A program made the translations under genes and the position numbers. The notes under the pieces were generated by a model. The model was not told where the DNA came from, made no database searches, and saw only the letters and a program-made list of their open reading frames with translations. Of a DNA stretch of 64,000 nucleotides, positions 19,677 through 63,024 are shown piece by piece. Each line of letters begins with the position of its first letter. Within the stretch, counting starts at the first letter, position 1. The DNA is from an uncultured Bdellovibrio sp. (GTDB lineage Bacteria > Bdellovibrionota > UBA1018), in assembly GCA_964490895.1 (NCBI GenBank), contig CAZBEI010000065.1, positions 1,192-65,191 on the forward strand. The letters run 5' to 3'.

Positions 19677-19682
19677 AATGAT

Positions 19683-20579: not shown

Positions 20580-20594
20580 ATTTTTTTCCTCAAT

Positions 20595-22280: not shown

Positions 22281-22286
22281 TCTCCT

Positions 22287-45252: not shown

Positions 45253-45627
45253 TCAAGCACAGCATGAAGGCTCTTCTGCTGAAGCACTTTGCCCAGATAC
45301 CGCTTCTTTATATGCTTTAAATGCTTTAATAGCCCACATTTCACCCACACAGCCACCCATAGTAGAGGCAATAGCTAAAAACTCACCAAGTTCTATTTCT
45401 GTAGTGCCAACTGCTACTGCGCGATGGATATAGTATTTAAAACATGGCTCACATCGAGCCGAGATAGCCCAAACCATCGCAGTGAGAATTTTAAATTTCT
45501 GAGGTACCTCACCATCTGAAAAGATTGCCTTCTTCCTCATTTGATCAATCAGTGCTGGGATTCCACTTGTGATTTTAGAAAAGTCCTTCATTAAGTTTAA
45601 GGCAGGATCAATTTTATTATAATCCAT
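45253..45627 (-). CDS. Carboxymuconolactone decarboxylase (CMD/AhpD-like) family protein
   Basis: 124 aa. CEPC redox motif. Last gene of the mer-like operon. Confidence 0.65.
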   Translation of the reverse strand: MDYNKIDPALNLMKDFSKITSGIPALIDQMRKKAIFSDGEVPQKFKILTAMVWAISARCEPCFKYYIHRAVAVGTTEIELGEFLAIASTMGGCVGEMWAIKAFKAYKEAVSGQSASAEEPSCCA

Positions 45628-45637
45628 AAGTCCTCCA

Positions 45638-45931
45638 TTAGTTTTCTATTTTTTTGCATTCTTGAGACGTTGCTTTATATCCCACATCGTTAATTGCTTT
45701 CTTAATAGCTTCTGCATTCGTTTGTGCGGGATCAAATTGAACAACTGCATTTTTCTTTTCAACAAAGACTTTGGCTACTTCAACGCCCTTAATCTTCTTC
45801 ACGGCAGCTTTCACCGTGATGCCACAGGTAGCGCAGGTCATCCCTTGTACATTATAACAAGCCTGCTCTGCCCTGGCTAAGCTTGCTACGTTGAGCATGC
45901 TTATAAAAACCAAGTATATTATTTTTCTCAT
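45638..45931 (-). CDS. merP: Periplasmic heavy-metal-binding protein, MerP-like (signal peptide + HMA domain)
   Basis: Start at MRKIIYLVF with RBS AAGGAGGGAG. GMTCATCGITV metal-binding loop. The track ORF extends upstream to 46012. Confidence 0.65.
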   Translation of the reverse strand: MRKIIYLVFISMLNVASLARAEQACYNVQGMTCATCGITVKAAVKKIKGVEVAKVFVEKKNAVVQFDPAQTNAEAIKKAINDVGYKATSQECKKIEN

Positions 45932-45942
45932 TTCTCCCTCCT

Positions 45943-46299
45943 TTAGGAAAAAAACCAGACAACCCACTGTGGGGAGGTTATTCCCAAGACAGCAACTGAA
46001 ACTCCAATCCAATAAAATATAACCATCTTTCTATATTTTTTGGGATCGGCACAAATGGACCCTGGTTCACAACTGTTACGTCTTCGATAAAGTGTAAAAC
46101 CAGCAACTCCAAAAAGCACTAAGACTAAAATTAACATGGGTACGCGGATCACATCAAATTTTGCCAGAGCTGCTGCACCAGATACTCCAAGAATTGTCAA
46201 AATGAGAGGACCTACACAACATAAAGGGACTAGCATAGAAGCAATAATTCCAGTTGTCACAAGCCATCCAGATTTATTTCCGACTTTGCTCTTGTTCAT
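45943..46299 (-). CDS. merT: MerT-like metal transport membrane protein
   Basis: TM1 Cys pair LVPLCCVGPL and cytoplasmic loop Cys pair SCEPGSIC as in MerT. About 118 aa from MNKSKVG. Confidence 0.6.
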   Translation of the reverse strand: MNKSKVGNKSGWLVTTGIIASMLVPLCCVGPLILTILGVSGAAALAKFDVIRVPMLILVLVLFGVAGFTLYRRRNSCEPGSICADPKKYRKMVIFYWIGVSVAVLGITSPQWVVWFFS

Positions 46300-46674: not shown

Positions 46675-47088
46675 ATGAGAAACGGTGTGTCTAAAACTTT
46701 AACTATTGGTCAACTAGCGAAGGCTGCTGATGTTAACATTCAAACCGTTCGTTTTTATGAAAGAAAAGGAATTTTAAAACCCCAAACACGACTAGAATCA
46801 GGCTATCGTATTTACAACGAAGACAGTCTTAGACGTCTTCGTTTTATTCGTCACGCAAAGGATTTGGGTTTTAGTCTTAATGAGATTCAAAGTCTCCTCA
46901 ATCTCAGGGTGCGTTCAGTAGAAAGTTGCAATCAAGTTAAATTGAAGGCTGAGCAAAAGCTGAAAGATGTTCAGCAAAAGATCGTCCAACTCAGAACGTT
47001 AGAACGAACCCTCAAGGGTCTCGTTTCTGATTGTGAAAATCGTGTCGTTTCAGACTGTTGCCCAATAATTAAAAAAATGGAAATCTAA
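46675..47088 (+). CDS. MerR-family metal-responsive transcriptional regulator
   Basis: N-terminal HTH (LTIGQLAKAADVNIQTVRFYERKGIL), coiled coil, and C-terminal Cys cluster CENRVVSDCCPI. Confidence 0.8.
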   Translation: MRNGVSKTLTIGQLAKAADVNIQTVRFYERKGILKPQTRLESGYRIYNEDSLRRLRFIRHAKDLGFSLNEIQSLLNLRVRSVESCNQVKLKAEQKLKDVQQKIVQLRTLERTLKGLVSDCENRVVSDCCPIIKKMEI

Positions 47089-47262: not shown

Positions 47263-50200
47263 TTAATTAGCCCTTGGCATCACTACCGAAGAAGAGGGAA
47301 CTACAGTTCCCTCTTTCATTTCAAACTTCCACTTCCAGATAAAGTAGATCGCTGGGTACACAAGAAGTTCTAGAGCGAAACTCGTTACGAGCCCTCCCAC
47401 CATGGGGGCAGCAATACGTCTCATCACGTCGCTGCCTGCTCCTGCAGCCCACATAATGGGTAGTAACCCCATAAATGCTGCCATGACCGTCATCATCTTT
47501 GGGCGTATCCTCTTGACGGCACCGTGTATGATAGCGTCACAGAGGTCTTCTTTTGTTTTCATTTGCCCAGCCTTAACTTTTTCTTCGTAAGCCAGATCGA
47601 GATAAAGGAGCATAAAGACTCCTGTCTCAGCATCCAAACCCATCAGAGCAATCATGCCCACCCATACGGCAATCGAAATATTGTATCCAAGCAAAAAAAG
47701 AAGCCACACACTCCCAATAACAGAAAAAGGTACCGCGAGCATTACAATGCCAGTTTTTATAATAGATTTTGTATTCATGTAGAGCAAAAGAGCAATCAGA
47801 AAAAGAGTCAGAGGTATGACAACCTTGAGGCGCTCCTTTACGCGAATCATATTTTCGAACTGTCCGCTCCAGACGAGATTATATCCTGTGGGCACTTTTA
47901 CTTTTTGTTCGACAACTTGCTTAGCTTCTTCTACATAACCGCCGATGTCTCTCCCAGCCATATCAACATAGACAAAACCAGCAAGAAGTCCGTTTTCGTT
48001 TCTGATCATCGATGGCCCTTCGACCATCTTAATGTCTGCAATCTGAGCCATTGGGATTTGAACTCCATTTGCTGCAGGAACAAGAACCCGCTTAAGTGCG
48101 TTGATATTATCTCTGAATTCTCTGGCGTATCGAATATTGATAGGATATCGCTCTCGACCCTCTATGGTTGAGGTGATGTTTTCACCTCCAACGGCAGAAC
48201 TGATAACCATTTGAGCTTCGTTGACAGAAATGCCGTATCTCGCAAGCTCATCACGATTTAAAACAAAATCTAAATAATATCCCCCTGCGGCTCTCTCAGC
48301 ATAAACGTTTCGAGTTCCACGAATCCCTCTGACCGCGGCTTCAATTTGTTCACTGGTGGCTTGTATGACTTTAAGATCAGGTCCCATGACTTTAATGCCG
48401 ATCGGGGTTCTGATTCCTGTAGAGAGCATGTCGATGCGGTTTTTGATGGGCATTGTCCAAATATTAGGGATTCCCGCAAATTTTAGTTTTTCATTCATTT
48501 CATTCTGGAGCTCATCAAATGTTTTATGAGGTGGAGTAGTCCAAGAAAAGAGTGGATACATAAATTGAGGGAGCCACGTGTACCATCGCTTGACGTGAGG
48601 CCATTCTGCTACAGGCTTCAGAACAACAGTCGTTTCGACCATCGAAAAAGGAGCAGGATCTGTAGGTGTTTCAGCACGTCCTGCTTTACCAAAAACACTT
48701 TTGACTTCTCCAAATTCTTTAATGAGCTTGTCTTGAATTTGCAAAATACGCTCGGCTTCTGTAACAGACATTCCGGGAAATGCTGTTGGCATATAAAGAA
48801 AAGCTCCCTCATTGAGAGGCGGCATGAACTCTGAGCCTAACTTCATGTAAATTGGTATCGTGGACAAAACTAGAATCACTGCTGCGGTAATTACTTGTTT
48901 GGGATACTTGAGAACAAAGTGAACTGCCGGTTCATAATATTTGAAAAGAACCCGGCTAATAGGATGCTTTTCTTCGGGGTAGTATTTGCCAACGAGGATC
49001 TGATTACCCAGCCAAATGATTTTTTTTCTTAAAAATTCGACCTGGTGATAAAACTTTGGGAGAACTCTAGTCAATGGTGAGTAGACAAAATAATCCATTC
49101 TTGTGAACATCATGCGAAGGGCAGGGTCAACCGTTACGGCAAGAAGAGCTGCTAAAGCCATTGCCAAAGTTTTTGAAAAAGCAAGCGGAGTAAAGAGTCT
49201 TCCCTCTTGATCTACCAAAGTAAAAACAGGCAAAAACGAAACAGCGATAACAAGGAGAGAAAAAAATACAGAGGGCCCTACTTGTTTAAGAGCATTTAAG
49301 CGAACTTCGTGAAAATCGCCCTTTCTTCCTGTAGAATTCCACTCCTCAAGTTTCTTATAAGCATTTTCGACTTCCACTATGGCCCCATCCACCAAAACAC
49401 CAATAGAAATAGCAATTCCAGCCAAAGACATGATGTTAGTCGTAAGCCCCAAGAAGTACATGGGGATAAAGGCTAGGAAAACTGAAATCGGAATGGTAAC
49501 AATAGGGACTGTTGCCGAAGGGATATGCCACAAAAAAAGAAGTATGACAAAGCTCACAATGATTACCTCAAGCTTTAGTTCATGCTTGAGAGTGTCGATG
49601 GCTCTTGTGATCAGATCAGAACGGTCATAGACAGGAACGATTTTTAATCCCGGAGGAAGACTTGGTTTTATTTCTTCGAGTTTTTCTTTTACTCGATTGA
49701 TAACATTAAGAGCATTTTCTCCTTGGCGCATGACAACGATGCCACCAACAGCGTCTCCCATCCCATTGAGATCAGTGACACCTCTCCTGATATCAGGACC
49801 TAGTTCCACGTTGGCTAAGTGTTTAACCAGTATAGGAACACCTGTTTTGGGATCATGTCCCACTACGACTTTTTCAATATCACTTTTTTGCTTAATATAT
49901 CCACGGCCACGAACCATGTATTCGGTGCCAGCAAATTCGAGCACCCTTCCACCCGTATCGCTATTGCCCTTTCGGACGGAGTCCACAAGCTGTGTGAGAG
50001 TCATCCCATAAGAAATAAGACGGTTGGGATCTACGTTAATTTGGTACTGTTTTACAAATCCTCCCACAGAGGCCACCTCCGCAACTCCGGGAACAGATTG
50101 CAGGTGGAATTTTAGCTGCCAATCTTGGATACTTTTCATTTGAGCAAGATTGAGATGATCTGACTCATCAATAAGGGCGTATTGGTAGACCCAACCCACA

Positions 50201-50601
50201 CTTGTGGCATCAGGGCCAATTTCTGTTTTGACCCCTTCGGGAAGTCTTGGCAGGATTTTACTTAGATATTCTATAACGCGTGACCTTGCCCAATAGAGAT
50301 CAGTTCTGTCTTCAAAAATAACATAGACATAGGAGTATCCAAAATCTGATAACCCTCGAACAGTTTTTATTTTTGGTGCGCCCAAAAGAGCTGTAACAAT
50401 GGGATAAGTGACTTGATCTTCGAGTATGTCTGGTGACCTATCCCATCTTGAATAAATAATGACCTGCGTATCAGATAAATCTGGAATCGCATCCAGAGGG
50501 ATATGTCTCACACACCACCACGCTCCTACCATGGCTACACCAGTGAGGATAAAAACGAGCAATTTATTTTTTGCACTCCACTCAATGAGGTTTTCAATCA
50601 T
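47263..50601 (-). CDS. cusA: Heavy-metal efflux RND transporter, CusA/CzcA family
   Basis: 1112 aa, 12 TM helices, two large periplasmic loops. HME-RND family. Confidence 0.9.
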   Translation of the reverse strand: MIENLIEWSAKNKLLVFILTGVAMVGAWWCVRHIPLDAIPDLSDTQVIIYSRWDRSPDILEDQVTYPIVTALLGAPKIKTVRGLSDFGYSYVYVIFEDRTDLYWARSRVIEYLSKILPRLPEGVKTEIGPDATSVGWVYQYALIDESDHLNLAQMKSIQDWQLKFHLQSVPGVAEVASVGGFVKQYQINVDPNRLISYGMTLTQLVDSVRKGNSDTGGRVLEFAGTEYMVRGRGYIKQKSDIEKVVVGHDPKTGVPILVKHLANVELGPDIRRGVTDLNGMGDAVGGIVVMRQGENALNVINRVKEKLEEIKPSLPPGLKIVPVYDRSDLITRAIDTLKHELKLEVIIVSFVILLFLWHIPSATVPIVTIPISVFLAFIPMYFLGLTTNIMSLAGIAISIGVLVDGAIVEVENAYKKLEEWNSTGRKGDFHEVRLNALKQVGPSVFFSLLVIAVSFLPVFTLVDQEGRLFTPLAFSKTLAMALAALLAVTVDPALRMMFTRMDYFVYSPLTRVLPKFYHQVEFLRKKIIWLGNQILVGKYYPEEKHPISRVLFKYYEPAVHFVLKYPKQVITAAVILVLSTIPIYMKLGSEFMPPLNEGAFLYMPTAFPGMSVTEAERILQIQDKLIKEFGEVKSVFGKAGRAETPTDPAPFSMVETTVVLKPVAEWPHVKRWYTWLPQFMYPLFSWTTPPHKTFDELQNEMNEKLKFAGIPNIWTMPIKNRIDMLSTGIRTPIGIKVMGPDLKVIQATSEQIEAAVRGIRGTRNVYAERAAGGYYLDFVLNRDELARYGISVNEAQMVISSAVGGENITSTIEGRERYPINIRYAREFRDNINALKRVLVPAANGVQIPMAQIADIKMVEGPSMIRNENGLLAGFVYVDMAGRDIGGYVEEAKQVVEQKVKVPTGYNLVWSGQFENMIRVKERLKVVIPLTLFLIALLLYMNTKSIIKTGIVMLAVPFSVIGSVWLLFLLGYNISIAVWVGMIALMGLDAETGVFMLLYLDLAYEEKVKAGQMKTKEDLCDAIIHGAVKRIRPKMMTVMAAFMGLLPIMWAAGAGSDVMRRIAAPMVGGLVTSFALELLVYPAIYFIWKWKFEMKEGTVVPSSSVVMPRAN

Positions 50602-51806
50602 TTTAGTTTTTGCAGTACCCCACGTAATTTTGATTCAGAATCAATGAGAAAATTGGCCGATGTGACAACCACATCACTCTCCTTAAGCCCTGAGAGTACT
50701 TCGTAATAATCATCTGTTCTAACGCCAACTTTTATGGGCTGGGGCTCGAAACGTCCCTTGTCATTGACAAGAAAAACAAAAGATTGTTGTTCAGAATGCA
50801 TCACTGAGTTTTCAGGCACTACAAGTCGTTTACCTAAATCCACTTTGATCCTGACATTCAAGAAGGTATCTGGCCTGAGCAGACCTTCTGTGTCGGGAAC
50901 TAGGGCTCTGAGACGAACAGTTCTTGTTGGAGAATTTACAACCGGGCTTATGCTTGAGATTTTACCGTGAAATGTTTTACCGGGAATGGATGGGGACTCG
51001 GCCTCTACTTCTGCCGAAGCACTTAGCCCCGCGACTTCATATTCGAAAACTTCTGCGTATACCCACACAGAACCGCTGGGTAAAAGCAGGTTGAGTGAAT
51101 TACTCCCTCCCTTCGAAAGACCACGGATTTGAGTGTCTCCTAACCCCAGCAGCCGGAGCTTTGTTTTAGCAGATGTGATGAGTTCATTGGCTTGCTTTTG
51201 CAGTCCAGGATAAGAATTTCCCTCCATCTGAGACCTTGCAGTCACAGCCTGTTGATATTCTTCGATTGCTATGTATAAATCAGGATCAAAAGCAACTCGC
51301 CCGCTAGCCTTTACCTCACGATTTAATTGCTTAAACTCCACTTTTGCTTTTGTTACACCAATGAGCTGCTGTCTTTCGGATGATAATGTAAAACTCCCTC
51401 GGCCCTCCACTTGAGTTGATCCATTTTCCTCAACCTCGTCCGAATAGACAGCTACATAATCCATTCCCATATTGTCCTTAGTTGGTGCGGGCGAAGTAAC
51501 TTTTGGATCCATAGGATTTCTGTAATAGAGAACCTTTCTTTCGTTTTTGTCAGAAGGTTTGTCAGAAGGTTTGTCAGAAGGTGTGTCAGCTGTGGCCCCA
51601 TCGTCTACTTTTTGTAAATCCATGTGACAAACTGGGCATTGATCTGGATGATCCGAAATTACCGAAGGATGCATGGGGCAACTGTAAACTGTTTTTGGAG
51701 CTCTTCCGTGTCCAGCTGACTCCTGGAATTTTTTTTTGGCAATGATATAACCACCCATACCAAAAACAAGGGCAAAGGACGTACATAAAGCCAAAATTTT
51801 TTTCAT
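50598..51806 (-). CDS. cusB: RND efflux periplasmic adaptor (CusB/CzcB-like) with N-terminal metal-binding CPMHP..CPVCHM motif
   Basis: Signal/TM anchor, a YSCPMHPSV....CPVCHMDL finger-like motif, beta-barrel/lipoyl membrane-fusion-protein domains. Contains a (PSDK)x3 repeat. Confidence 0.8.
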   Translation of the reverse strand: MKKILALCTSFALVFGMGGYIIAKKKFQESAGHGRAPKTVYSCPMHPSVISDHPDQCPVCHMDLQKVDDGATADTPSDKPSDKPSDKNERKVLYYRNPMDPKVTSPAPTKDNMGMDYVAVYSDEVEENGSTQVEGRGSFTLSSERQQLIGVTKAKVEFKQLNREVKASGRVAFDPDLYIAIEEYQQAVTARSQMEGNSYPGLQKQANELITSAKTKLRLLGLGDTQIRGLSKGGSNSLNLLLPSGSVWVYAEVFEYEVAGLSASAEVEAESPSIPGKTFHGKISSISPVVNSPTRTVRLRALVPDTEGLLRPDTFLNVRIKVDLGKRLVVPENSVMHSEQQSFVFLVNDKGRFEPQPIKVGVRTDDYYEVLSGLKESDVVVTSANFLIDSESKLRGVLQKLK

Positions 51807-53122
51807 TTTAGACTCTCTCCTAGTGGCTCGCCCAACAAGGCTTCTAGTTCAGCAATTTTAGATTCATAGTTTACCAGTGCTTCGTAATAGGACAACTCTG
51901 TTTGAAAACGAGTTTTTATGAGATTAAGGAGAGACGCATACTCAATTTTACCTGTAGAATAAGCTAATTTGCCACTCTGTGTAGACTGCTCAGCAAGGGG
52001 TAGCAGTCCCCCACCAAATAAACTCAGTCGTTTGTTAGCTTCTTGTAGTTCTGAAAAAATCGTGTGAACGCTATGAAGAATATGGTTTCTTTCTTCGTTT
52101 AACAGGGCGTCAGACTTTGCTTCTTGAGCTCTTGCGCCTTTAACCTCCTCTGATTGCTTGCTAAAGGTCCAAATAGGAAGTGACATAAAAACTCCACCTG
52201 AGACAAGACTTACACCTCGATCACCAGGACTTGGCTGTCTCTTTGTGTAGGAAACTTTGAATTCAAAATCAGGAAGATAGTTCCACTTTGCATAAGAGAG
52301 TTTAGTTTCAGCAGACTCAAGCAGAGCTCTCGCTGATTTGATACTAGGATTTTTAGAAATAATTTTTTCTGCTAAAATTTTCTCATTTATTGCTGAAAAA
52401 TTAATGGAGGTTTTTTTGATTTCTTCAGGTTTACCAATTTCATGATGACTGGGTCTTCCTAAGATATGATTTAAATCCCCGGTTTTAGTTTGAATCAGTC
52501 TTTCAGCACTAAACAAATGATCTGTAAACGCGGCCTCCTCAAGCTGTACACTGAGAAGCTCAGCTAGAGTGATTTTGCCAAGAGAATTTCGACTGCGAGT
52601 CACTGCAACCATCTGTTTCATCACTCCCAATTGTTCGTGAGTGATGTCTTCCCTTTTATATGCTAAAAATAACTCATAGTAGGCAAGCCGCACATCTTTA
52701 ATGAGTTGCAATTGTTGATTATTAAAATTTTCTTTTTTGGAGTTGTATTCGTGGGTTGTGGCTCTGCTCAACTTTGTGAGCTTTCCCGGAAATGGTATTT
52801 TCTGAGTAATACTCAGCTGGTTCCCAGTCATTCCAAACTCTCTTGAACTCAAAGTATCGGCTGGATAATTCATTGCCTCAAATCCAATCATTGGATCCTC
52901 ATAAGCACCTCTCGGCCCTATCTCCGCTTCCTTGGAAAGAGCTTCATATTTTGATGCCTTAAGTAGTAGATTATTATCTAAAGCTTCTTGAATAACGTCT
53001 TTGAGTCTTATAGAGTCTTGGGCCAGGCCTTTGACCGATGGTAAAGCAGCCCCAAAAAGAAAACAACCAAAAAGAAAACAATAAGATAGCCAAAATAAAT
53101 TAAACCGGGTGTTAAATACCAT
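51803..53122 (-). CDS. cusC: Outer-membrane efflux protein (TolC/CusC family)
   Basis: 439 aa, signal peptide, two coiled-coil repeats. Overlaps cusB by 4 nt. Confidence 0.8.
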   Translation of the reverse strand: MVFNTRFNLFWLSYCFLFGCFLFGAALPSVKGLAQDSIRLKDVIQEALDNNLLLKASKYEALSKEAEIGPRGAYEDPMIGFEAMNYPADTLSSREFGMTGNQLSITQKIPFPGKLTKLSRATTHEYNSKKENFNNQQLQLIKDVRLAYYELFLAYKREDITHEQLGVMKQMVAVTRSRNSLGKITLAELLSVQLEEAAFTDHLFSAERLIQTKTGDLNHILGRPSHHEIGKPEEIKKTSINFSAINEKILAEKIISKNPSIKSARALLESAETKLSYAKWNYLPDFEFKVSYTKRQPSPGDRGVSLVSGGVFMSLPIWTFSKQSEEVKGARAQEAKSDALLNEERNHILHSVHTIFSELQEANKRLSLFGGGLLPLAEQSTQSGKLAYSTGKIEYASLLNLIKTRFQTELSYYEALVNYESKIAELEALLGEPLGESLK

Positions 53123-53227: not shown

Positions 53228-53932
53228 CTACAAACTAGTCACAATACCTAGCAAAAAAGAATGACCAGAGAAATTCTCGCCAGTGACTGGAGAAAATATG
53301 TGACGATAATCAACCATCAATTGAGTTTTATCCGTACCCATCCAAGCAAGGTTATGGCGGATACCGAGCGTCGCATGATAAGCCAACGAACCTCCTCGTC
53401 TCTGAGCTCCGTCAAGGTCTGAAGACTGTAAATAGGTGTAATATCCCACCCCAAGTTCAACGACTGGCATCGCCCATTTCATTATTGGAGCATAGTCTCC
53501 CAAGTAGACTAACCCAAAAGTCAGCGGTAACAGTGAGAGCCGACTGGGGCCTGCGGGTATGCCATCTGCGAAGCTTGCGTTGCCTATGTGTGAACTGTAA
53601 CCCAAGTCTACCCGTACACCCCAGCTTCCGAGAAATGTAATCGGAGTCGTTTCCCAGCCGATTTCTAAAGCAAACGCGGAATCATTTTTAGGATAATAAA
53701 AATTATAAGCGTCTCCAGTTAAGGTTGTTCCATTGAGCGATCTTGTTCCGATTTGAAATTGTAAGGTAGAAAAATGACTTGAGTCAGCTGAGGACAATTG
53801 CTCTAGGTAAACGACGTTTTGAGAGGACTTCGAAGCTCCTGGATCTAGAAGTAGGGGCAATTTTTCATTCCCAGCAGCCAATGACCCAGCAGCCGATAGA
53901 GCAACAAAACTCATTACGAGAACCCGATTCAC
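53228..53932 (-). CDS. Small outer-membrane beta-barrel protein
   Basis: Signal peptide, eight or more amphipathic strands, aromatic-rich C-terminus. Confidence 0.45.
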   Translation of the reverse strand: MNRVLVMSFVALSAAGSLAAGNEKLPLLLDPGASKSSQNVVYLEQLSSADSSHFSTLQFQIGTRSLNGTTLTGDAYNFYYPKNDSAFALEIGWETTPITFLGSWGVRVDLGYSSHIGNASFADGIPAGPSRLSLLPLTFGLVYLGDYAPIMKWAMPVVELGVGYYTYLQSSDLDGAQRRGGSLAYHATLGIRHNLAWMGTDKTQLMVDYRHIFSPVTGENFSGHSFLLGIVTSL

Positions 53933-55266
53933 TTTGCCACCTTCAGATTAGCAATCTCGCCAAGGCCCTCGTGAAAAATTAAGCCTTCGATATTTTTACC
54001 GGCATGAAGCCCCTTTAATGTTAGGGGATAGGCACCGGCCGTTTGAGCGACCAATCGGCGTGTATAAATATTAAATTCAACACGAGAAAATGGGAGTTCC
54101 ACGTACTCAGTCGAGCCAAAAGCACCAAAATACAATCTCATGTTTCCGGTAATTGAAATCCCGTCAGGTTGAGAAAGATCCTCTGAGCTAATGAAATTCG
54201 CCGTGACCCTTTCGGGCAAATGGGATTGAGTATTCGTATTTTCAAGTTTCCCCTGGTAGATCCCAGCCAGAGACTGAATTTTTTCGTATCCAAGAGGAAA
54301 TAAGGGATAAGATGATCCGACTGAAAAAATAACTTCTCCTGTTTCTCCCATAAAACGGTTACTCCAGTGTCCTCGCATGTCTGCGCCCACAAACTGTCCA
54401 AAGAGTGAGACATTGAGACCCTCTTGTCTCAGAGTGAGTTGCCCACTGATCGGGTTAAAGGACACATCATCGTAGGAATAAGTCGTTTGCTCTGTGGAGT
54501 TATCATCCCCAAAAATCAATCTCAATGTCGCTCTCACGTTGATAGCGTCAGGAAGTTTGACTGACGTACTCAGAGCCAACTTCGCCAATTGGAGTTGGTT
54601 TGATTTATCCCAAAGGGCAAGGCCTCTGTATTCGCCCTTAATATGATGGAGGGGGTGATCAGAAATTTTGCCTGTTCCACCCGATGATACCGAGCGAACG
54701 AGTTCCAGGCTCCCCTGCTCGGAAGCACTAGGAGCAGACCAAGTTCCATGCAAGACCGCTCTGTTAGTAGAAACATCAAGATAGATGAAAATGTCTTTAT
54801 ATTGGCTATTATTCACAACCAAGTTCATCTTTGCAGTATTCAGATCAAAATCACCCTTACCAACAGAGAAACTCACAAACTCAGAGCTAGAGTCATTTGG
54901 CAAATTTGGCGGCGAATTTGGAGCCGCTTCTGAAAAATTAAAGCGAATGAACCCCGACAATGTTGGAACAAGAATGGGATCCACCTGTCCATCTTGAGTT
55001 TCAGGAACATTTTTAATTTCTAAATTCAAGGTTATATTTTCTTGAGTTCCGGCAGATCGTATAAACTTTCCGTGGTATTCCCCAGCGACTTGCTGGAGCT
55101 CTTTAGTTTTTGTCTGCGTTTTGAGCTGATTTCGCTCTCTTAAACTTTCTCTTTCGCTTTTGTTATTGGTCCCACATGAAACAAAAAAGACAATAGAAAT
55201 GCTTATTAGGACGCAGTGAAGCACAGATTGGATGATACTTGCTTTTACTTTCATACTTATGGCCAT
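53929..55266 (-). CDS. Lipoprotein with two copies of a novel ~100-aa module (paralog 1 of 3)
   Basis: Lipobox FVSC. Repeated blocks LRLIFGDDNSTEQTTYSYDDVSFNPISGQLTL and MRLYFGAFGSTEYVELPFSRVEFNIYTRRLVAQT. Confidence 0.5.
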   Translation of the reverse strand: MAISMKVKASIIQSVLHCVLISISIVFFVSCGTNNKSERESLRERNQLKTQTKTKELQQVAGEYHGKFIRSAGTQENITLNLEIKNVPETQDGQVDPILVPTLSGFIRFNFSEAAPNSPPNLPNDSSSEFVSFSVGKGDFDLNTAKMNLVVNNSQYKDIFIYLDVSTNRAVLHGTWSAPSASEQGSLELVRSVSSGGTGKISDHPLHHIKGEYRGLALWDKSNQLQLAKLALSTSVKLPDAINVRATLRLIFGDDNSTEQTTYSYDDVSFNPISGQLTLRQEGLNVSLFGQFVGADMRGHWSNRFMGETGEVIFSVGSSYPLFPLGYEKIQSLAGIYQGKLENTNTQSHLPERVTANFISSEDLSQPDGISITGNMRLYFGAFGSTEYVELPFSRVEFNIYTRRLVAQTAGAYPLTLKGLHAGKNIEGLIFHEGLGEIANLKVAK

Positions 55267-56087
55267 TTCTGCATTGTGACTCGTCCCACTTTTCCGAGTC
55301 CATCGGTATACAAGTCTCCCTCCGCTGTTGCATCGTAGGACATATACCCCTTAAAAGTAAGACCGTAGTTTTCGGTTTTAGCGGTCAAAAACCGACTGTA
55401 AGAATTAAACTGTACGTCCGTAAATTTTATTTCTATGTATTCTAGAGAATTGAAACTTCCAAGATACAATCTCAAATTTCCATTAATTGCTAACTTCGGT
55501 GTAGGGCCAGAGAGATCTTGGGTTGCAACAAATGACATTGTCAATCTTTCCGGAAGACTGGATTGGGGATTTGTGTTTGCAAGTATACCACGATAATATC
55601 CAGACAACTCTTTGACGTTTGTTGATGCAAGCGGTGGAACAGGAAAGTTGTCTTTTGTTGCTATAAATTTTCCAACCCGACCGACAATCGAAGAATACCA
55701 GTCCCCCTCAATTTGGCCCCCCTTAAGAATGGCTACGGCACTCACATCGCTTCCGTCGTTGGTAAATACCAGTTGTCCAGTGATGGGATTAAGGGGCACG
55801 TTCGCAAATTCGTAAGTTAGAAACTCATTCGAATCGGCTGCGCCAAAGATAATCCTCATATTAGCAGAAATTTTGAATTCTCCGCTCGGATTTGTTGTTT
55901 TTAAGGTGATCAGTCCGAACTGATAATAGTTAGTACCTTCATGCTGAAAGATAACCTTATAAAGTCCCGCAACTGAACTCACGTCCTGCGAGATAGCATA
56001 TTGAGAAAAGACAAGGGCAACCAAAAAAGTCGCTGAAAAAATTAAACGAGCCAAAGCTGAGCGTGACACTAATATAAAACGAAACAT
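55257..56087 (-). CDS. Secreted protein with two copies of the same novel module (paralog 2 of 3)
   Basis: Start at MFRFIL with RBS GAAGGGGGG. Blocks MRIIFGAADSNEFLTYEFANVPLNPITGQLVFT and LRLYLGSFNSLEYIEIKFTDVQFNSYSRFLTAKT. Confidence 0.5.
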   Translation of the reverse strand: MFRFILVSRSALARLIFSATFLVALVFSQYAISQDVSSVAGLYKVIFQHEGTNYYQFGLITLKTTNPSGEFKISANMRIIFGAADSNEFLTYEFANVPLNPITGQLVFTNDGSDVSAVAILKGGQIEGDWYSSIVGRVGKFIATKDNFPVPPLASTNVKELSGYYRGILANTNPQSSLPERLTMSFVATQDLSGPTPKLAINGNLRLYLGSFNSLEYIEIKFTDVQFNSYSRFLTAKTENYGLTFKGYMSYDATAEGDLYTDGLGKVGRVTMQKWP

Positions 56088-56194
56088 AGAACCCCCCTTC
56101 GCATGCATTCACCCTTGACGTATACCTATCTTGGGGTATATGTCAAGGCTAAGAAAAAATGCTGTAAAAAGAGAAAAACTAGGGGGGGTTTTAA

Positions 56195-56644
56195 ATGAAA
56201 TTTAAAAAATTAAGTGATTTGATCTCTGGGGTCTTTATTGTGGGAATACTGAGTTTAAGTATTTCAGCCTTAGCAGCTGATCTCCATTGCAGTATTTGTA
56301 GCATGAAAATCCCACAGAGTTCAAAAAACCATCTTGTCCTAAAAAACTTGGATCCCAAGAAACCATCTCTTCATGCTTGCTCACTATCTTGTGCGACTAA
56401 GGCCAGAAAATATGACCCAAAATACGCTCAAATAGAGGTTTCTAATTTTAATCATCCTGACGAATTTCTCTCTGGTGAAAAAGCTTTTTTTCTCATGAAG
56501 AGTGAAAAAATTCAGGCCGATCTTGGCCCAATGGCGATGCTCCCTTATTTTGGTGCTTTTAGTACAAAAGCAGAAGCAGAGGCAGCTCAAAAAAAATATG
56601 GGGACGGAGTCATTGTCCAAGGATTTGAGGGTGCTTTAAAATGA
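56195..56644 (+). CDS. nosL: NosL-family copper-binding lipoprotein (Cu chaperone)
   Basis: Signal peptide. CSICSM aligns to the NosL CxxCxM motif. C-terminal A.LGPMAMLPYFGAF..AEA.AAQKKYGG..V.F resembles NosL. Confidence 0.55.
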   Translation: MKFKKLSDLISGVFIVGILSLSISALAADLHCSICSMKIPQSSKNHLVLKNLDPKKPSLHACSLSCATKARKYDPKYAQIEVSNFNHPDEFLSGEKAFFLMKSEKIQADLGPMAMLPYFGAFSTKAEAEAAQKKYGDGVIVQGFEGALK

Positions 56645-57120
56645 GAACCCGCACACTTTTTTCGGCGGTTTTTTTGGGTCTGTTATTGGGTTGTGGTCCT
56701 ATGAATTCTCCCAAAAAAATAAACTCAGATGATCAAAATAAAAAAAAATCTTCTCCTACCGCCTCTGGAGCTACTCGAGTTTCAAAAAATAACCAGTTCT
56801 ATGTTTATGCAACACCTGTAAATCCATCTGCGTCTAATATACCAAGCTCCACGCGTCTAGAGATAGGCGAAAATACTTATCTCTTTCGGTTTTCGCATTG
56901 CGAAGATCTAAAAAATCCATCTGATCAAGCGACCCTCAAAATTACTTATTGGATGCCAGAGATGCCAGACATGGGCAAATCTGATGGAGTGGCCGTTCGT
57001 CAAACAGATGGATCTTATACATCGACACTTTTCTTTGGGATGCCAGGCCATTGGGAAATCACACTCAAAATGCAAGATGGAAATATACAGGATGATTATG
57101 TCTTTGATGAAAATTTCTGA
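56641..57120 (+). CDS. YtkA/FixH-like Met-rich copper-binding lipoprotein
   Basis: Lipobox LLGC. WMPEMPDMG Met motif and GMPGHWEITL block. Confidence 0.5.
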   Translation: MRTRTLFSAVFLGLLLGCGPMNSPKKINSDDQNKKKSSPTASGATRVSKNNQFYVYATPVNPSASNIPSSTRLEIGENTYLFRFSHCEDLKNPSDQATLKITYWMPEMPDMGKSDGVAVRQTDGSYTSTLFFGMPGHWEITLKMQDGNIQDDYVFDENF

Positions 57121-58057
57121 TATTTCGAAAAGCACTCTTTTGTTTTCATTTGTTTTCATTTGTTTTTCTGTACCTTCCTACGCTTCAAGCTGTTGTGCTG
57201 GAAGTGGAGGGCAAAGTCTTTGTGTTTTACCTTCGGAACAAAGCTACCAATTGGGGGCATCCAGTGCTTACCGGTCTATCGAAGGGCGCTTTGATCCTTA
57301 TGGACAATATACTGCCAATAAAGAGGGTGATCGCATTCGCTCCATTGTCACAGTTCTTGGAGCTGCCTATCGCCTTAATCATGATTGGCAGTTGGGTCTG
57401 AGTGTCCCCATTACAAGTAATCAGCAAAGTTTTTCTGGAAAAAACCATGGGGCAACCTCTCTGGGAGACCCTGCCTTTGAAGCGAGGTATACTTTTTTGG
57501 AGGACCTAAGCTTTCTCACATTTCGACCCGGACTTACTTTCTATGGAGGAGTTCGTTTGCCTGTTGGAAAATCTATTTATAATTCGACAGACCCTTACAA
57601 TGCAGATGCTGTGGGTGATGGAACAACGACTTTTCATATGGGGCTGAATGCCTCAAAAATCTATAGCCCAATAAAACTCACTTTTGATAGTGCATTTTTT
57701 TATCCGTTCAGTAAGAAAGTTACCGAAATGCGGGGAGACCCTGTTTCATCCCCCTACCCACTTAAAAGTGGAAACAAAGTGCAACTTCTAGAGAGCGCTG
57801 GTTATCTGGTCAATGAACACTGGAGTGGCACTTTAGGTGTAAAGCAGCTTTGGATTTTCGAAAGCTCTCTCAATTCAGAGCCTGTATTGGGCTCTGCGGG
57901 GCGTCTTTTTTCGAGTCTCATCACACTTAATTATTTTCACAACGCTTCTTTAGGTTTGGGTCTCACTTATGAAACAGCATTTCCATTTTACCATTACCTA
58001 GCGAATCAGCCCTATGTCCAACAAATTTCTTTGGCCGCAACTTATGGAGGATTTTAA
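57107..58057 (+). CDS. Outer-membrane beta-barrel channel protein
   Basis: Start at MKISDISKS with signal peptide; the track ORF starts at 56984. Amphipathic strands. Ends ..AATYGGF. Confidence 0.5.
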   Translation: MKISDISKSTLLFSFVFICFSVPSYASSCCAGSGGQSLCVLPSEQSYQLGASSAYRSIEGRFDPYGQYTANKEGDRIRSIVTVLGAAYRLNHDWQLGLSVPITSNQQSFSGKNHGATSLGDPAFEARYTFLEDLSFLTFRPGLTFYGGVRLPVGKSIYNSTDPYNADAVGDGTTTFHMGLNASKIYSPIKLTFDSAFFYPFSKKVTEMRGDPVSSPYPLKSGNKVQLLESAGYLVNEHWSGTLGVKQLWIFESSLNSEPVLGSAGRLFSSLITLNYFHNASLGLGLTYETAFPFYHYLANQPYVQQISLAATYGGF

Positions 58058-58495
58058 ATGAAACAATCAACACTGAATGTCTTTGGGCTTAGTAACTGGT
58101 TAGCAGTTACTCTAATTTTTGGAATTTTCAGTCTGGGATCCAACTCTGGCTGGACTGACTCAAATCCTATAAAGTTTGATCCTGCAGAGCCAAGTGCGGG
58201 TGGGAACTATCAAGTTTCAGGCAATTGGTTAGAACTCAAGCGGGGCTGGAATGTCTTAACTCTTCAAATTGTAGATTCTAACTCCAATCCTGTCACTGGG
58301 GCAGAGCTAAAAGTTATCTACGACATGGTTGGAATGCCCATGAATCCTCCCAATAAGCCAGTAGAGGAAAAGGGGGAGGGTCGTTACAATAAACAGGTTT
58401 TTTTAGGGATGCGAGGTCAATGGAAATTTGATCTGACGATCCACAAAGACACTGTAGAAGACACGCTCTCACACATTGAAAACGTTAAAAATTAG
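58058..58495 (+). CDS. Second YtkA/FixH-like Met-rich lipoprotein (paralog of 56641-57120)
   Basis: YDMVGMPMNPP and GMRGQWKFDLTI blocks parallel the first copy. Confidence 0.5.
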   Translation: MKQSTLNVFGLSNWLAVTLIFGIFSLGSNSGWTDSNPIKFDPAEPSAGGNYQVSGNWLELKRGWNVLTLQIVDSNSNPVTGAELKVIYDMVGMPMNPPNKPVEEKGEGRYNKQVFLGMRGQWKFDLTIHKDTVEDTLSHIENVKN

Positions 58496-58532: not shown

Positions 58533-60131
58533 ATGAAAGTTCTCTATTTTTTATTTTTGCAGCTTTTACTGTCCACTATAATTGCACCCACAAATGCACA
58601 GACTAGCGAAGGCTCCGTATTTGGAAGATATCTGGGTGTTCTTGAACACGAAAGAACGGGAGAACAGCAGTTAGCTAAACTTGATTTTATACTGGACCGA
58701 AATGAGGGTTCAACGCTTGCTTTGAAAGCAATTCTGACATTGCATTTTGGAGATTATACAAGCCAAGAATACGCTGCATTTCATTTTAATCAGGTTCAAT
58801 TCAATCTGCTGACTTCTAGTCTTGTCTTTGATCAGCCTGATCAAGACGTGAGAGTTGTTGTAGAGCGATTCGAGGGTGGAGTGCTTTCGGGCACGTTAAA
58901 ATCAAATATTTTTGGAACCGTAGGAAAAATAAAATTACAAAGAGATGAGGGCCAGAGTGCTGTTCTAAGCTCACTCCCTTTGATTGAACCCGTGCAGGGC
59001 GAATACAAGGGTAAATGCAATAACAAAGAGTCCTGGTTAAGACTCTTTACCTATCGAGCTACCGAAGATATTACTAAAACTGGAAACCCATTTGGGGCCT
59101 ATGAAATAGTGGGTCACATTGCCCAATATGATTTTGCTCTTTGCGGGCCAGACCCTGAAAGACCTTGTGTTTTAGCAGAGTATAATGCAGGTTCTTATGA
59201 TTATTTTTCGCAGGAGCTTAAGCTGATCGGAAGACTGAGCCGACTAAAATGTAAAAAAATAGGATCACAGTTGAATTGTGATTCTTGTCAATTTCAAAGA
59301 GTTTCGAATGAAAACGAATTAAAAAACCTACACCCACCCACATCAGTACCAGAACTTTTTGTATTAAGCTCTGATAGTTCTCCTCACCCATCACAACCGA
59401 TGTCTATCAGTGGCGAATACGAAGGATATTTGTATCATGAGTATTTGAACACCTATCAAAAAGCACGAATTGATCTTTCAACTTTTCAAACAATAGAAAA
59501 TGGAGAAAGTCACTTCAAAGTATCGGCAGCCGCACGGCTTATTTTTGGCAATGGCAATAAAGAAGCCGAGGAGATTTTGAGTTACCGCTTTGATAATGTG
59601 GACTACCCAAACCCAACCCGACCTTTTCAACTTGTATTTGCTCGTTCCTCAGCTGATGTGGATGCTATCATTCGGATTTCGTCTTTTAAGGATGGAGTGA
59701 TTAAAGGCGAATGGTTTTCTCTCATGTTTGGCCGAGTGGGTGCTTTTGAACTCCGGAAAAAAGAGTTAGAGCAGCTACCCACCCCAAAACAACTCATGAC
59801 AGGTCTTACAGGTGAGTATAAAAACAGCACGTGGTTCATTAGTCTTGCTGCTCGATTAGGAAGAACACCTATTAATACAGATAATCCATTTTTCCCTTTG
59901 CAGTTGGAAGGGTTTGTTGGTCCTAATAATAGATTTTTTAGAAAAGATGACATCCAAAGAGGAAGTTATGATTTTTACACTGGAAAATTTGCATTACTCT
60001 ATGACAATAATTATTTACTAACCGGAACTCGATTTCAAGATGGAAATTTTTCCCTTTCTTACGTTGCCAATAAGTTTGCTGTATTGGCTCAGAATTTTTA
60101 TCCAGATCTTTATAAAAAAATAAATGAATAG
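58533..60131 (+). CDS. Secreted protein with two copies of the novel module plus a Cys-rich insert (paralog 3 of 3)
   Basis: RBS AAGGAGG. Blocks LTLHFGDYTSQEYAAFHFNQVQFNLLTSSLVFDQ and ARLIFGNGNKEAEEILSYRFDNVDYPNPTRPFQLVF. Confidence 0.5.
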   Translation: MKVLYFLFLQLLLSTIIAPTNAQTSEGSVFGRYLGVLEHERTGEQQLAKLDFILDRNEGSTLALKAILTLHFGDYTSQEYAAFHFNQVQFNLLTSSLVFDQPDQDVRVVVERFEGGVLSGTLKSNIFGTVGKIKLQRDEGQSAVLSSLPLIEPVQGEYKGKCNNKESWLRLFTYRATEDITKTGNPFGAYEIVGHIAQYDFALCGPDPERPCVLAEYNAGSYDYFSQELKLIGRLSRLKCKKIGSQLNCDSCQFQRVSNENELKNLHPPTSVPELFVLSSDSSPHPSQPMSISGEYEGYLYHEYLNTYQKARIDLSTFQTIENGESHFKVSAAARLIFGNGNKEAEEILSYRFDNVDYPNPTRPFQLVFARSSADVDAIIRISSFKDGVIKGEWFSLMFGRVGAFELRKKELEQLPTPKQLMTGLTGEYKNSTWFISLAARLGRTPINTDNPFFPLQLEGFVGPNNRFFRKDDIQRGSYDFYTGKFALLYDNNYLLTGTRFQDGNFSLSYVANKFAVLAQNFYPDLYKKINE

Positions 60132-60141
60132 GAGAGTCGAT

Positions 60142-61152
60142 ATGAGGTTTAAATTTTTTGAAAATGCTATTGCCTTTACAGTAAGCTGCGTTTTTATCCT
60201 ATTATTGTCTCAAGAAGGGTTTACTTACCCCAGCATAAGAACATACCTTGGAAAAAGCTTTCTTGGAAAATCAGCCGAAAATAAAAAGCAGTGCGAAGAC
60301 CTTTTGCCAAAATTAGTTGCAACAATCGATCATGTTAAAGAATCAGGGATTAAAGTGGTTCATAGTCAATGTAGGGAAAATGAAAATTCCTATCAAATAG
60401 AGATTGATTATGGATATCAGCTCTCGGATCCACTCTATTCTGATATTCTTACACCCAAATCTCAAAATTCATGCTCCACAGATGTTCTAGATGTTAGACA
60501 AAGGCTATCGGAGGCAAAAAACAGTCTTTATTTACTAGATGTGTATTGCAAACCTGATGGAGAAAACGAAAGAATTCAAATCGATTACTTTAATCCAGAA
60601 CATTTAGTTTTAGTTCAAATAGAATATCCATTGCAGTTTTCTAAGCATAGTGACTGCGAAGCAGAGTCCTCTCGTCTATTCAAATCTATTTCTAGTAGCG
60701 TGATTTTCGCACTTCGAAACTATTGCAGAAGGGTCACCTATAGTACCACCGGAGAGATTTCGTTTCGCTCTATCGTTGATTATTATAAGCCTATCTACAA
60801 ATCCATTAGAACTGAAATCGTGCTAAGCACAACGGACAAAACCGAATGTGTCCACCAGTTAGAGGTTGTGAAGGCAAAATTCAATCAGCATAAGTTCACA
60901 GATATTTTTTTGGCTTGCACTTTAGAAGGTGGTTTGTTTATGGGGGTTTTGGCTTTTGTAGAAACTACGGATAGAAGTTTAAGCTTTGTTTCGCCTGAGC
61001 ATTTTTATGACAAGAAGACTTGCGAACAAAAAGGAGAACTCATGTCACGGTACTATGAAAAATTAAACACACCTGTTGTGCATTGGAGTTGTACACAGCA
61101 GTACGTCAATGGCTCATATGATCTATTGTTTTTTTATTACTATCAAATTTAA
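60142..61152 (+). CDS. Secreted hypothetical protein (Cys-rich)
   Basis: Start at MRFKFF with RBS AGGAGAG; the track ORF starts at 60124. Signal/TM anchor. No recognised domain. Confidence 0.4.
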   Translation: MRFKFFENAIAFTVSCVFILLLSQEGFTYPSIRTYLGKSFLGKSAENKKQCEDLLPKLVATIDHVKESGIKVVHSQCRENENSYQIEIDYGYQLSDPLYSDILTPKSQNSCSTDVLDVRQRLSEAKNSLYLLDVYCKPDGENERIQIDYFNPEHLVLVQIEYPLQFSKHSDCEAESSRLFKSISSSVIFALRNYCRRVTYSTTGEISFRSIVDYYKPIYKSIRTEIVLSTTDKTECVHQLEVVKAKFNQHKFTDIFLACTLEGGLFMGVLAFVETTDRSLSFVSPEHFYDKKTCEQKGELMSRYYEKLNTPVVHWSCTQQYVNGSYDLLFFYYYQI

Positions 61153-61213: not shown

Positions 61214-61729
61214 TCAATTAAGAGCCCCCTCTTTTTTTAGAAACTTTGATCTATTTATAGCAGTTAAAATATTGCCTATGGCAACTTTTCCACTCCAACT
61301 GCCAACAAGATTTCTTTCGCGATTAAACAGAAAAATTTGTGGAACTGATTTTATTTCACCAGAAAGCGTCTTTGATGCGTCTTTACTTGGAATCCATTGT
61401 TCATATTGAGGCTGAAAATGTGAGACAAACGCTTCTATTTCTTTTTTTCTAGATTGAATAGGAATCCCTAAAATAAAAAGCCGCTTTTCTTCATGGTTGA
61501 TACTTTTTAGGAGTGCGTTTAACTCTTGAACCTCTTGGCCACATGGGGCACAAAATGGGCTCCAGAATTGAAGCAACACAAAATCTTCTTTGATCTTGTG
61601 GAGTTGGGTTCTGATTTCTGGTTGCTCATTGATTTTAATTGGGCTGTCTTGCACAGATGCCTTTAGTTCTAAAGCTGAAAAAACAATTAAACCACAAGTA
61701 AGGCTCATCACTAGATTTTGAAATCTCAC
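61214..61729 (-). CDS. TlpA/ResA-like periplasmic thiol-disulfide oxidoreductase
   Basis: Signal peptide and FWSPFCAPCGQE CxxC thioredoxin-fold motif. Confidence 0.65.
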   Translation of the reverse strand: MRFQNLVMSLTCGLIVFSALELKASVQDSPIKINEQPEIRTQLHKIKEDFVLLQFWSPFCAPCGQEVQELNALLKSINHEEKRLFILGIPIQSRKKEIEAFVSHFQPQYEQWIPSKDASKTLSGEIKSVPQIFLFNRERNLVGSWSGKVAIGNILTAINRSKFLKKEGALN

Positions 61730-62664: not shown

Positions 62665-63024
62665 TTGTATGCTGAACTAAGCCAGCTGATTCAAGCTAAA
62701 AGGCTTTTGCCAGAGCAAACCTTATTCAGCTCTGAAAAGGGGACTCCGATTGATCATGATAATTTTGTGGGCCGATATTTTGAAAAAGACCTCAAAGATG
62801 CGGGGTTAAAAAAAATTCGGTTTCATGACTTGCGACATACGGGAGTGACTTTGATGGTTGCAGAAGGACTAGACTTAAAAACAGTCAAAGAAATCTGCGG
62901 TCACAAAGATATCTCTACAACAATGAAGTATGTGCACTTAGTAGCAGATTGTATTAAAAATGTTGCAAAAGTATTCGCAATAGTGCCTGCTGCAGCATGT
63001 CCAAAGCTTCGTCTTGTCAGTTAG
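62665..63024 (+). pseudogene. Tyrosine recombinase/integrase C-terminal fragment (N-terminally truncated)
   Basis: Catalytic-domain blocks RFHDLRHTGVTLMVAEG and GHKDISTTMKYVHL (active-site Arg, His and Tyr). Only ~119 aa, with an upstream in-frame stop. Confidence 0.7.

Follow-up and report, generated by a model that had tools for sequence, protein, structure and literature searches.

A NosL-like, YtkA-like and outer-membrane barrel gene module beside cusCBA in an uncultured Bdellovibrio: a probable copper-stress system of the cell envelope

Introduction

What does a NosL-family copper chaperone do where no genes for nitrous-oxide (N2O) reductase are found nearby? The question is raised by four genes at positions 56195-58495 of a 64,000-nucleotide stretch of DNA from an uncultured Bdellovibrio sp. 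(GenBank assembly GCA_964490895.1, contig CAZBEI010000065.1, positions 1,192 to 65,191 of the forward strand), the whole of which is called the window here. The genes encode a NosL-like protein, two YtkA-like proteins (YtkA1 and YtkA2) and an outer-membrane beta-barrel. NosL is the Cu(I) donor for N2O reductase (PMC8457098), clusters with that enzyme in the literature (PMC6769254), and is treated there as its dedicated chaperone (PMC7558416, PMC6769254). A first-pass annotation of the window had noted that nosZ is missing and had read the genes as a line for importing copper and inserting it into the enzymes NirK and caa3 oxidase. The absence of nosZ was borne out, as neither nosZ nor nosDFY was found among the open reading frames (ORFs) of the 64-kb window. 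Copper, the periplasm and outer membrane, and chaperone-type domains are also supported; a role for NirK and caa3 oxidase is the poorer fit, given the linkage of the genes to a Cus pump, a putative operator in their promoter and a distance of 33-40 kb to the enzymes. The module most likely helps to remove excess copper and is less likely to feed respiratory enzymes; we lean towards reading it as an envelope system for copper(I)/silver(I) stress, acting together with the CusCBA efflux pump next to it.

The four-gene operon

Four co-directional genes were found on the plus strand where the first-pass annotation had placed them, each overlapping or abutting the next:

56195-56644, plus strand: NosL-like protein of 149 residues, NosL superfamily, predicted to be secreted, soluble and periplasmic
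56641-57120, plus strand: YtkA1, a YtkA/CrdA-like lipoprotein of 159 residues with PF13115, a lipobox and a Met motif
about 57107-58057, plus strand: outer-membrane beta-barrel of 316 residues, called from its AlphaFold2 (AF2) fold and its homologues
58058-58495, plus strand: YtkA2, a secreted YtkA-like protein of 145 residues with PF13115, its first base directly after the barrel stop codon

The NosL-like and YtkA1 genes overlap by 4 nt, the YtkA1 and barrel genes by at least 14 nt, and the barrel and YtkA2 genes abut directly; because of this tight packing the four are taken to form a single operon. An alternative start of the barrel, the ATG at 57098, gives 319 residues, which is the product held in the protein database. 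Terminator-like matches inside the operon all fall in coding sequence and were disregarded. None of the four proteins matches an NCBIfam model. The motifs quoted from the first reading are all present, namely CSICSM (residues 32-37 of the NosL-like protein), WMPEMPDMG and YDMVGMPMNPP.

A fifth component may be encoded outside the operon:

61214-61729, minus strand: TlpA/ResA-like periplasmic thioredoxin with a CAPC motif and Thioredoxin_8 and ResA-like matches

By its homologues, this thioredoxin would be a displaced member of the module, the corresponding gene lying between the barrel and YtkA2 in four related loci (L001, L004, L007 and L013).

Linkage to cusCBA in the window and in related loci

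The real neighbour of the operon is a divergent cusCBA operon (47263-53122), which the first-pass annotation did not mention. Its genes, and those that separate it from the module, are as follows:

51803-53122, minus strand: CusC-type outer-membrane factor (PF02321), kept beside the module in related loci
50598-51806, minus strand: CusB (PF19335 and PF16576; best NCBIfam match CusB)
47263-50601, minus strand: CusA-type pump of the heavy-metal-efflux resistance-nodulation-division (HME-RND) type (TIGR00914, the CusA/CzcA model, 1056 bits)
53228-56108, minus strand: unk283, unk445 and a 234-residue MXAN_2562-like outer-membrane barrel, between the shared promoter and cusC

When the CusA of the window is aligned to E. 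coli CusA structures, the Cu(I)/Ag(I) Met triad of the E. coli pump (M573, M623 and M672) is seen to be kept in full (LYM-PS, EM-VETT, RIDM-LSTG). The minus-strand ORFs of unk283, unk445, the 234-residue barrel and cusCBA overlap or are closely spaced, and the first three are probably co-transcribed with cusCBA. There is no ORF between cusC and cusB that could be cusF, and no CusF-type match was found among the scanned neighbouring ORFs. The system can be compared with E. coli CusCFBA, with which it shares a CusA-type pump with the same Met triad and, as proposed here, periplasmic Met-site proteins that hand Cu(I)/Ag(I) to it. Unlike that of E. coli, the cluster lacks a CusF homologue, and the folds of its candidate chaperones are unrelated to that of CusF; control seems to lie with CsoR or an extracytoplasmic function (ECF) sigma factor, whereas E. 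coli uses CusRS.

Related loci were retrieved through homologues of the NosL-like protein and of the barrel, and were mapped by tblastn. The order NosL-like, YtkA1, barrel, (thioredoxin), YtkA2 is kept in 11 independent Bdellovibrionota loci, a set that is small and phylogenetically narrow, so that common descent makes the synteny look stronger than it is. The carriers appear to be Bdellovibrionota, namely Pseudobdellovibrionaceae, Bacteriovoracaceae, Oligoflexia, Bdellovibrionales and metagenome-assembled genomes (MAGs) labelled 'Deltaproteobacteria'. The distribution of features is as follows:

Order NosL-like, YtkA1, barrel, YtkA2: window, L001, L003 (cut), L004, L006, L007 (cut), L008 (cut), L010, L011, L012, L013
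Thioredoxin gene between barrel and YtkA2: L001, L004, L007, L013
CusCBA-type HME-RND pump within about 5 kb: 10 of the 10 loci with enough flank
csoR as divergent neighbour: L003, L006, L011
ECF sigma/anti-sigma pair in the place of the regulator: L012, L013
copC and copD also present: L001

The order of the module is constant, whereas the Cus operon next to it differs between loci in its orientation and subtype. Genes for cox, nirK or nos were found within 9-10 kb in none of ten related loci. Chance juxtaposition of the genes was considered and rejected, as their order recurs in 11 loci.

A shared promoter with a putative CsoR-type operator

Only 86 bp separate unk283 from the NosL-like gene, and they include TTGACGTATACCTATCTTGGGGTATATGTCAA at 56115-56146:

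56115-56146, no strand assigned: palindromic divergent-promoter region TTGACGTATACC-N8-GGTATATGTCAA, read from the sequence

Either strand reads TTGAC(A/G)-N16-TATA(T/C)G, which gives two face-to-face promoters, and both spacers contain a CsoR-type operator core, ATACC-N8-GGTAT (56122-56139). Published CsoR operators have the general form ATACC(C)-N-GGGGTAT. The core of the window occurs once in 64 kb, against 0.44 occurrences expected per shuffled window. L003, L006 and L011 have the same promoter architecture in the gap that separates csoR from the NosL-like gene (...TTGACATATACCCTCCCCGGGGTATATGTGTCAAGG... in L003), and the CsoR of these relatives carries the Cys...His-x3-Cys (C-H-C) signature, with the copper sensor RicR as its best NCBIfam match. 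From these likenesses we infer that the palindrome could act as a CsoR operator. A simple sigma-70 scan missed the palindromic promoter, whose -10 hexamers TATATG and TATACG fail the rule of the scan; the promoter-like sites that the scan did find were no more frequent than in shuffles.

Such an operator would bear on the direction in which copper is handled. Metallation chaperones are generally outside copper-sensor control, according to a review (PMC9470648), so that control by a copper sensor can be taken as a sign of detoxification. A CsoR-type operator would also imply that high copper induces the genes, the opposite of what is expected of an acquisition system.

The NosL-like protein

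The protein is a real but divergent member of the NosL superfamily. The direct profile search proposed with the first-pass annotation does not find it: the PF05573 score is 14.2 bits against a gathering cut-off of 24 (E 0.056), and NCBIfam gives nothing. Remote homology, fold and ligand conservation recover the assignment. A direct search of the sequence against the PDB found nothing significant, and a family profile reached NosL (7og7) only at E 0.18; because these searches are weak, homology is shown through intermediates and the fold. A word-indexed search found 8 close relatives only, and a profile of those 8 against 1.84 billion representative proteins found 87 relatives, in which PF05573 is matched by 47 of 53 sampled. 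With hhalign, the 8-member subfamily aligns to 26 more distant relatives, each matching PF05573 at E <= 1e-3, with 99.9% probability (E 7.5e-32, 119 columns).

The AF2 model (predicted local distance difference test, pLDDT, 86) has the two-domain beta-beta-alpha-beta fold common to NosL and MerB. Its only significant PDB fold match in Foldseek is 7znq_L, the NosL of the NosDFYL complex solved by cryo-electron microscopy (E 2.6e-4; template modelling score, TM, 0.59/0.60; root-mean-square deviation 2.9 Å over 124 columns). MerB (MerB2) ranks second; it is a known structural relative of NosL.

The metal ligands of Shewanella denitrificans NosL are Cys59 (Zn), Cys62 (bridging), Met64 (Cu), Cys88 and Asp92 (Zn), and Met145 (Cu) (Prasser et al.). 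All six positions are occupied in the protein of the window. The spacing of C32-x2-C35-x-M37 is identical to that of the Shewanella CxxCxM motif, C62-x3-C66 (in an HxCxxxC motif) occupies the Cys88/Asp92 positions, and M115, at the Met145 position, lines up with the Met in the ...GAMG... of 7og7. The residues that correspond to Cys62, Met64 and Met145, namely C35, M37 and M115, are invariant or nearly so in alignments A1 and A2. At the other Zn positions C32 and C62 are kept, and Asp92 is replaced by Cys66. Zn ligands vary among NosLs (Prasser et al.), and the change from Asp92 to Cys predicts a Cys4 zinc site formed by C32, C35, C62 and C66.

With NosL and NosDFYL (PF05573; PDB 7OG7 and 7ZNQ chain L), the protein shares the two-domain fold (TM 0.6), the CxxCxM spacing, the second Cys pair, the C-terminal Met and a periplasmic location. 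Unlike them, it scores below threshold in Pfam, has a Cys where the Cys3Asp site of NosL has Asp92, and carries no lipoprotein anchor: its signal peptide ends in ...SISALA, followed by ADLHC, and a lipobox is present in 0 of the 8 subfamily members. The surroundings differ as well, with no nosZ or nosDFY in the window or near the related loci and with YtkA-like proteins, a barrel and CusCBA as partners under apparent copper-sensor control.

The YtkA-like proteins

Both proteins exceed the PF13115 gathering cut-off of 25.9 bits (YtkA1 42.6, YtkA2 32.9), and the profile check thus upholds their assignment. Their description as two lipoproteins is right for one of them. YtkA1 has a lipobox (LLGC followed by GPMN), conserved with an MPxMPxMG Met motif in an alignment with 6 orthologues; YtkA2 has an ordinary signal peptide without a lipobox and the Met motif YDMxxMPMNPP in its orthologue alignment.

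Searching the PDB with YtkA1 by phmmer finds 9ll2, a 'Copper resistance protein' (E 0.006), with MPEMPDMG aligned to MPEMPGMP; YtkA2 has no significant match among PDB sequences. The 9ll2 chain carries MMPEMPGMPAMKEM, the MMXEMPGMXXMXEM motif reported for Helicobacter pylori CrdA (PMC9182242), and judged by this motif alone it would be H. pylori CrdA. Since the aligned fragment of 9ll2 scores 71 bits on PF13115, CrdA-type copper-resistance proteins can be regarded as YtkA-like domains. In H. pylori, crdA is copper-induced, is required for copper tolerance and lies beside crdB-czcBA (PMC9182242).

Two characterized systems can thus be set beside the YtkA-like proteins of the module. YtkA1 resembles CrdA (HP1326) of the CrdA/CrdB-CzcB-CzcA system in being a small secreted lipoprotein-type YtkA-like protein with an MPxMPxM-type Met motif, encoded adjacent to HME-RND pump genes. 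It differs in that the window has two YtkA-like paralogues together with the NosL-like protein, the thioredoxin and an extra barrel, that these genes form a separate operon divergent from the pump, and that similarity to CrdA is weak (E 0.006). The other comparison is with Bacillus subtilis YtkA (CtaK), which, in work cited by PMC12362106, loads cytochrome c oxidase. PF13115, the lipoprotein anchor (of YtkA1) and extracytoplasmic copper handling are common to both; CtaK serves assembly of the oxidase CuA site, whereas linkage in the window is to efflux genes, the cox genes being 33 kb off, and no cox genes are found near the related loci.

The outer-membrane barrel

The third gene has a signal peptide, a C-terminus ending in ...YGGF, and 27 homologues (alignment A3), largely from Bdellovibrionota MAGs. 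The window protein matches no Pfam or NCBIfam model, and some of the homologues give faint PF13557 or PF03349 matches. Its AF2 model (pLDDT 80) identifies it as an outer-membrane beta-barrel with a predicted FapF/COG4313-type fold: Foldseek finds FapF (E 1e-14, TM 0.66/0.76) and the COG4313 channel 4rl8 (E 3.5e-11), in agreement with the barrel call of the first-pass annotation. The DSSP strand count of the model is ambiguous, at 12-14. Behind an AxA cleavage site, alignment A3 shows x-S-C-[C/H]-x-G-G-G-G-Q as the N-terminus of the mature protein, with a nearly invariant first Cys.

The likeness to the COG4313 channel (PDB 4RL8) and FapF (PDB 5O65; PF13557) lies in predicted fold and size (TM 0.62-0.76) and in an N-terminal segment before the barrel, which plugs the pore in the solved structures. 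Identity is 13-18%, and the window protein, besides having no Pfam match, differs in its conserved Cys-Cys/His and poly-Gly tail and in its context, which is metal handling rather than hydrocarbon uptake or amyloid secretion. Identity with CopB/PcoB was ruled out, as there is no PF05275 match at E <= 0.1. The two share an outer-membrane barrel in a copper-responsive cluster (putatively so in the window) with periplasmic copper-binding proteins; PcoB/CopB is of another fold class, has PF05275 and a Met-rich rather than Cys/His extension, and is partnered by a multicopper oxidase that is missing here.

A proposed mechanism

The copper-stress reading can be laid out as a sequence of steps, which become more conjectural towards the end. 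Excess cytoplasmic Cu(I) would release a CsoR-type repressor from 56115-56146 and open both divergent promoters, as the operator sequence and the adjacency of csoR in relatives suggest. One promoter would drive unk283, unk445, the 234-residue barrel and cusCBA, and the other the four-gene operon. The NosL-like protein, predicted to be soluble, may capture periplasmic Cu(I) at Cys35, Met37 and Met115, judging from the match to the Shewanella NosL ligands, with the Cys4 zinc site (C32, C35, C62, C66) proposed as a scaffold that forms a zinc-stabilized N-terminal knuckle. The YtkA1 lipoprotein and soluble YtkA2 would bind Cu(I)/Ag(I) at their all-Met sites and, by analogy, pass it to CusB and CusA. 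This is the role of CusF in E. coli, and the one proposed for CrdA with CrdB-CzcBA in H. pylori; there is no cusF here. The TlpA/ResA-like thioredoxin may keep the Cys ligands reduced. The weakest and most speculative step is the last, in which a barrel of predicted 12-strand type with a flexible Cys-Cys/His tail would form a second, chaperone-fed copper route across the outer membrane, or the gate of such a route. Delivery of copper from the chaperones to the barrel is suggested by the Cys-Cys/His tail on its poly-Gly tether and by translational coupling to YtkA1.

Copper or silver is favoured as the metal because of the CusA triad, the C-H-C CsoR of relatives, the all-Met motifs, and copC and copD in L001.

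Weighing the explanations

The import and insertion reading holds that the barrel brings copper in and that the NosL-like protein, the YtkA proteins and the thioredoxin insert it into NirK and into caa3 oxidase, at its CuA and CuB sites. TlpA-like thioredoxins are indeed used in CuA assembly, and a caa3 oxidase and a NirK-like protein are both encoded in the window. Donation of Cu(I) to N2O reductase by NosL (PMC8457098), loading of cytochrome c oxidase by B. subtilis YtkA/CtaK (as cited in PMC12362106) and the remark that some NosL homologues are encoded away from nos clusters and could be chaperones of a more general kind (Prasser et al.) also speak for it. The operon is, however, not next to these enzymes, contrary to what had been stated: about 30 genes intervene, the caa3 cox genes (19143-23270) lying at a distance of 33 kb and the only NirK-like gene of the window (14804-15829) at one of 40 kb. 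The NirK-like product is a two-domain multicopper protein that scores 197 bits on TIGR02376 against an NCBIfam cut-off of 296, and its identity as a true nitrite reductase is not secure. Beside the caa3 genes lies a DUF420 gene (18417-19010, minus strand). We take DUF420 to be the family to which CtaM/YozB, an oxidase biogenesis factor of B. subtilis, belongs, in which case the oxidase genes would have an assembly factor of their own close by. With Cus pumps at all ten related loci that have enough flank, cuproenzyme genes near none, and a CsoR-type operator that would imply induction at high copper, we consider import and insertion unlikely. Equally improbable, in our view, is a self-contained device for copper export or sequestration at the outer membrane, in which the chaperones would load Cu(I) on the barrel tail in parallel with CusCBA and without feeding it. 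The overlap of the YtkA1 and barrel genes, the conserved x-S-C-[C/H]-GGGGQ motif of the mature barrel, its predicted membership of a plugged 12-strand channel class and a module order that stays stable while the Cus operon varies would all suit such a device, as would the Gly after the lipid-modified Cys of YtkA1, which by the E. coli sorting rule points to the outer membrane. It has no evident energy source there, and the constant Cus linkage argues instead for cooperation with the pump. More improbable still is a module that, instead of copper, handles a different soft metal or a thiol-reactive stress (Hg, Ag alone, or Zn/Cd). NosL and MerB share a fold, the Cys4 site could bind Zn, Cd or Hg, and mer-like genes are present in the window, including a MerP-like protein of the HMA family, a MerC-HMA fusion and a MerR-family regulator. 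These mer-like genes are separate transcription units, though, and the all-Met motifs are of the same type as in CrdA, CusF and CopC, in line with the pointers to Cu(I)/Ag(I) given above.

Several observations weigh against the copper-stress reading, or against parts of it. No csoR was found in the 64-kb window by tblastn, so that the regulator must lie elsewhere in the genome. For the MerR-family regulator beside cusA, the Hg-MerR, ZntR and CueR models score alike and all fall below cut-off, Hg-MerR being the best. The characterized NosL, YtkA/CtaK and TlpA proteins act in cuproenzyme assembly, and we know of no established resistance role for them. An extra outer-membrane channel is not obviously needed, as CusC already spans the outer membrane. 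The N-terminal tail of the barrel is unstructured in the AF2 model (pLDDT 30-39), and we know of no FapF/COG4313-type barrel that carries metal, a lack of precedent which, with the disordered tail, also counts against the independent exporter. All functions proposed for the module are drawn from homology, synteny and one operator-like sequence. On balance a copper(I)/silver(I)-stress system serving CusCBA is still the account we hold to be somewhat probable.

Other features of the window

Several neighbouring genes can be noted in their own right. The 234-residue barrel directly upstream of cusC (53228-53932, minus strand) matches NF040596 (E 8e-12), and its homologue directly follows YtkA2 in L001 (12742-13473), so it may be a loose extra member of the module. 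The flanking secreted proteins of 283 and 445 residues (53929-56108, minus strand), which lie between the CsoR-type operator and cusC, and of 532 residues (58533-60131, plus strand) are paralogues with a repeated domain of about 120 residues (blastp E 1e-47 to 1e-5). None of the three has a Pfam match, nor does a secreted protein of 342 residues (60124-61152, plus strand) whose gene overlaps the end of the 532-residue gene. The latter protein has five successive Cys pairs (57/83, 117/142, 178/201, 242/265 and 300/323), which suggests five one-disulfide repeats of about 60 residues. All four (unk283, unk445, unk532 and unk342) were considered as core module members and rejected, as they have no homologues in the related loci. 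In the csoR-bearing relatives, csoR, a small ORF, a DUF2231 membrane protein and a second small ORF precede cusCBA on the minus strand (L003 8341-9942; L011 6361-8055); DUF2231 and the small proteins are recurrent uncharacterized Cus companions that are absent from the window.

The MerR-family regulator near cusA (46675-47088) is divergent from a MerP/CopZ-like HMA protein (45638-46012) and a CMD/AhpD-like gene (45253-45627). A further metal-transport gene, for a MerC-type membrane protein fused to a C-terminal HMA domain (2040-2858, plus strand), is remote from the copper genes. An ORF of 119 residues (62665-63024, plus strand) at the right end of the copper region contains ...RFHDLRHTGVTLM...YVH... 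and looks, by eye, like the catalytic C-terminal portion of a tyrosine recombinase, perhaps that of a truncated integrase. A search of the 64-kb window for tRNA genes as island markers found none. A small cytochrome c gene (13870-14226) is directly upstream of the NirK-like gene. Between 30267 and 42270 there is a cluster for an enzyme of the type II dimethyl sulfoxide (DMSO) reductase family, with a Mo subunit of 1224 residues, a 4Fe-4S subunit, a haem subunit of the EB_dh type and a NarJ-like chaperone. After it come a complete set of genes for the molybdenum cofactor and a transporter for molybdate.

Novelty and implications

Every domain of the system comes from a known family, be it NosL, YtkA/CrdA, thioredoxin, the COG4313/FapF-like barrel or CusCBA. 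No description of the cluster was found in the literature searched on NosL with YtkA, CsoR, Cus or Bdellovibrio. What appears to be new is the combination, namely a NosL-family protein fixed in a Cus-linked operon under apparent copper-sensor control, without nos genes nearby and with a thiol-tailed barrel. To our knowledge, Bdellovibrionota are mostly predators, and copper handling in the group is essentially unstudied.

The boldest proposal that the locus allows is an undescribed outer-membrane copper route, in which a NosL-family chaperone whose client is not N2O reductase, two CrdA/YtkA-type proteins and a thioredoxin would load Cu(I) on the Cys-Cys/His tail of the barrel, which would then move or gate copper. 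We hold this to be possible but doubtful. If true, it would provide the first metal-handling member of the FapF/COG4313 barrel class and would extend NosL from an assembly factor of a single enzyme to a general component of the copper-stress response.

If the copper-stress reading holds, a NosL-family gene should not be taken as a marker of N2O reduction in metagenomes, and the module would supply candidates for the missing CusF function in pumps without cusF. Copper passage across the outer membrane is a poorly understood part of Gram-negative copper homeostasis, and a FapF/COG4313-type barrel with a thiol/imidazole tail would then be a candidate for it.

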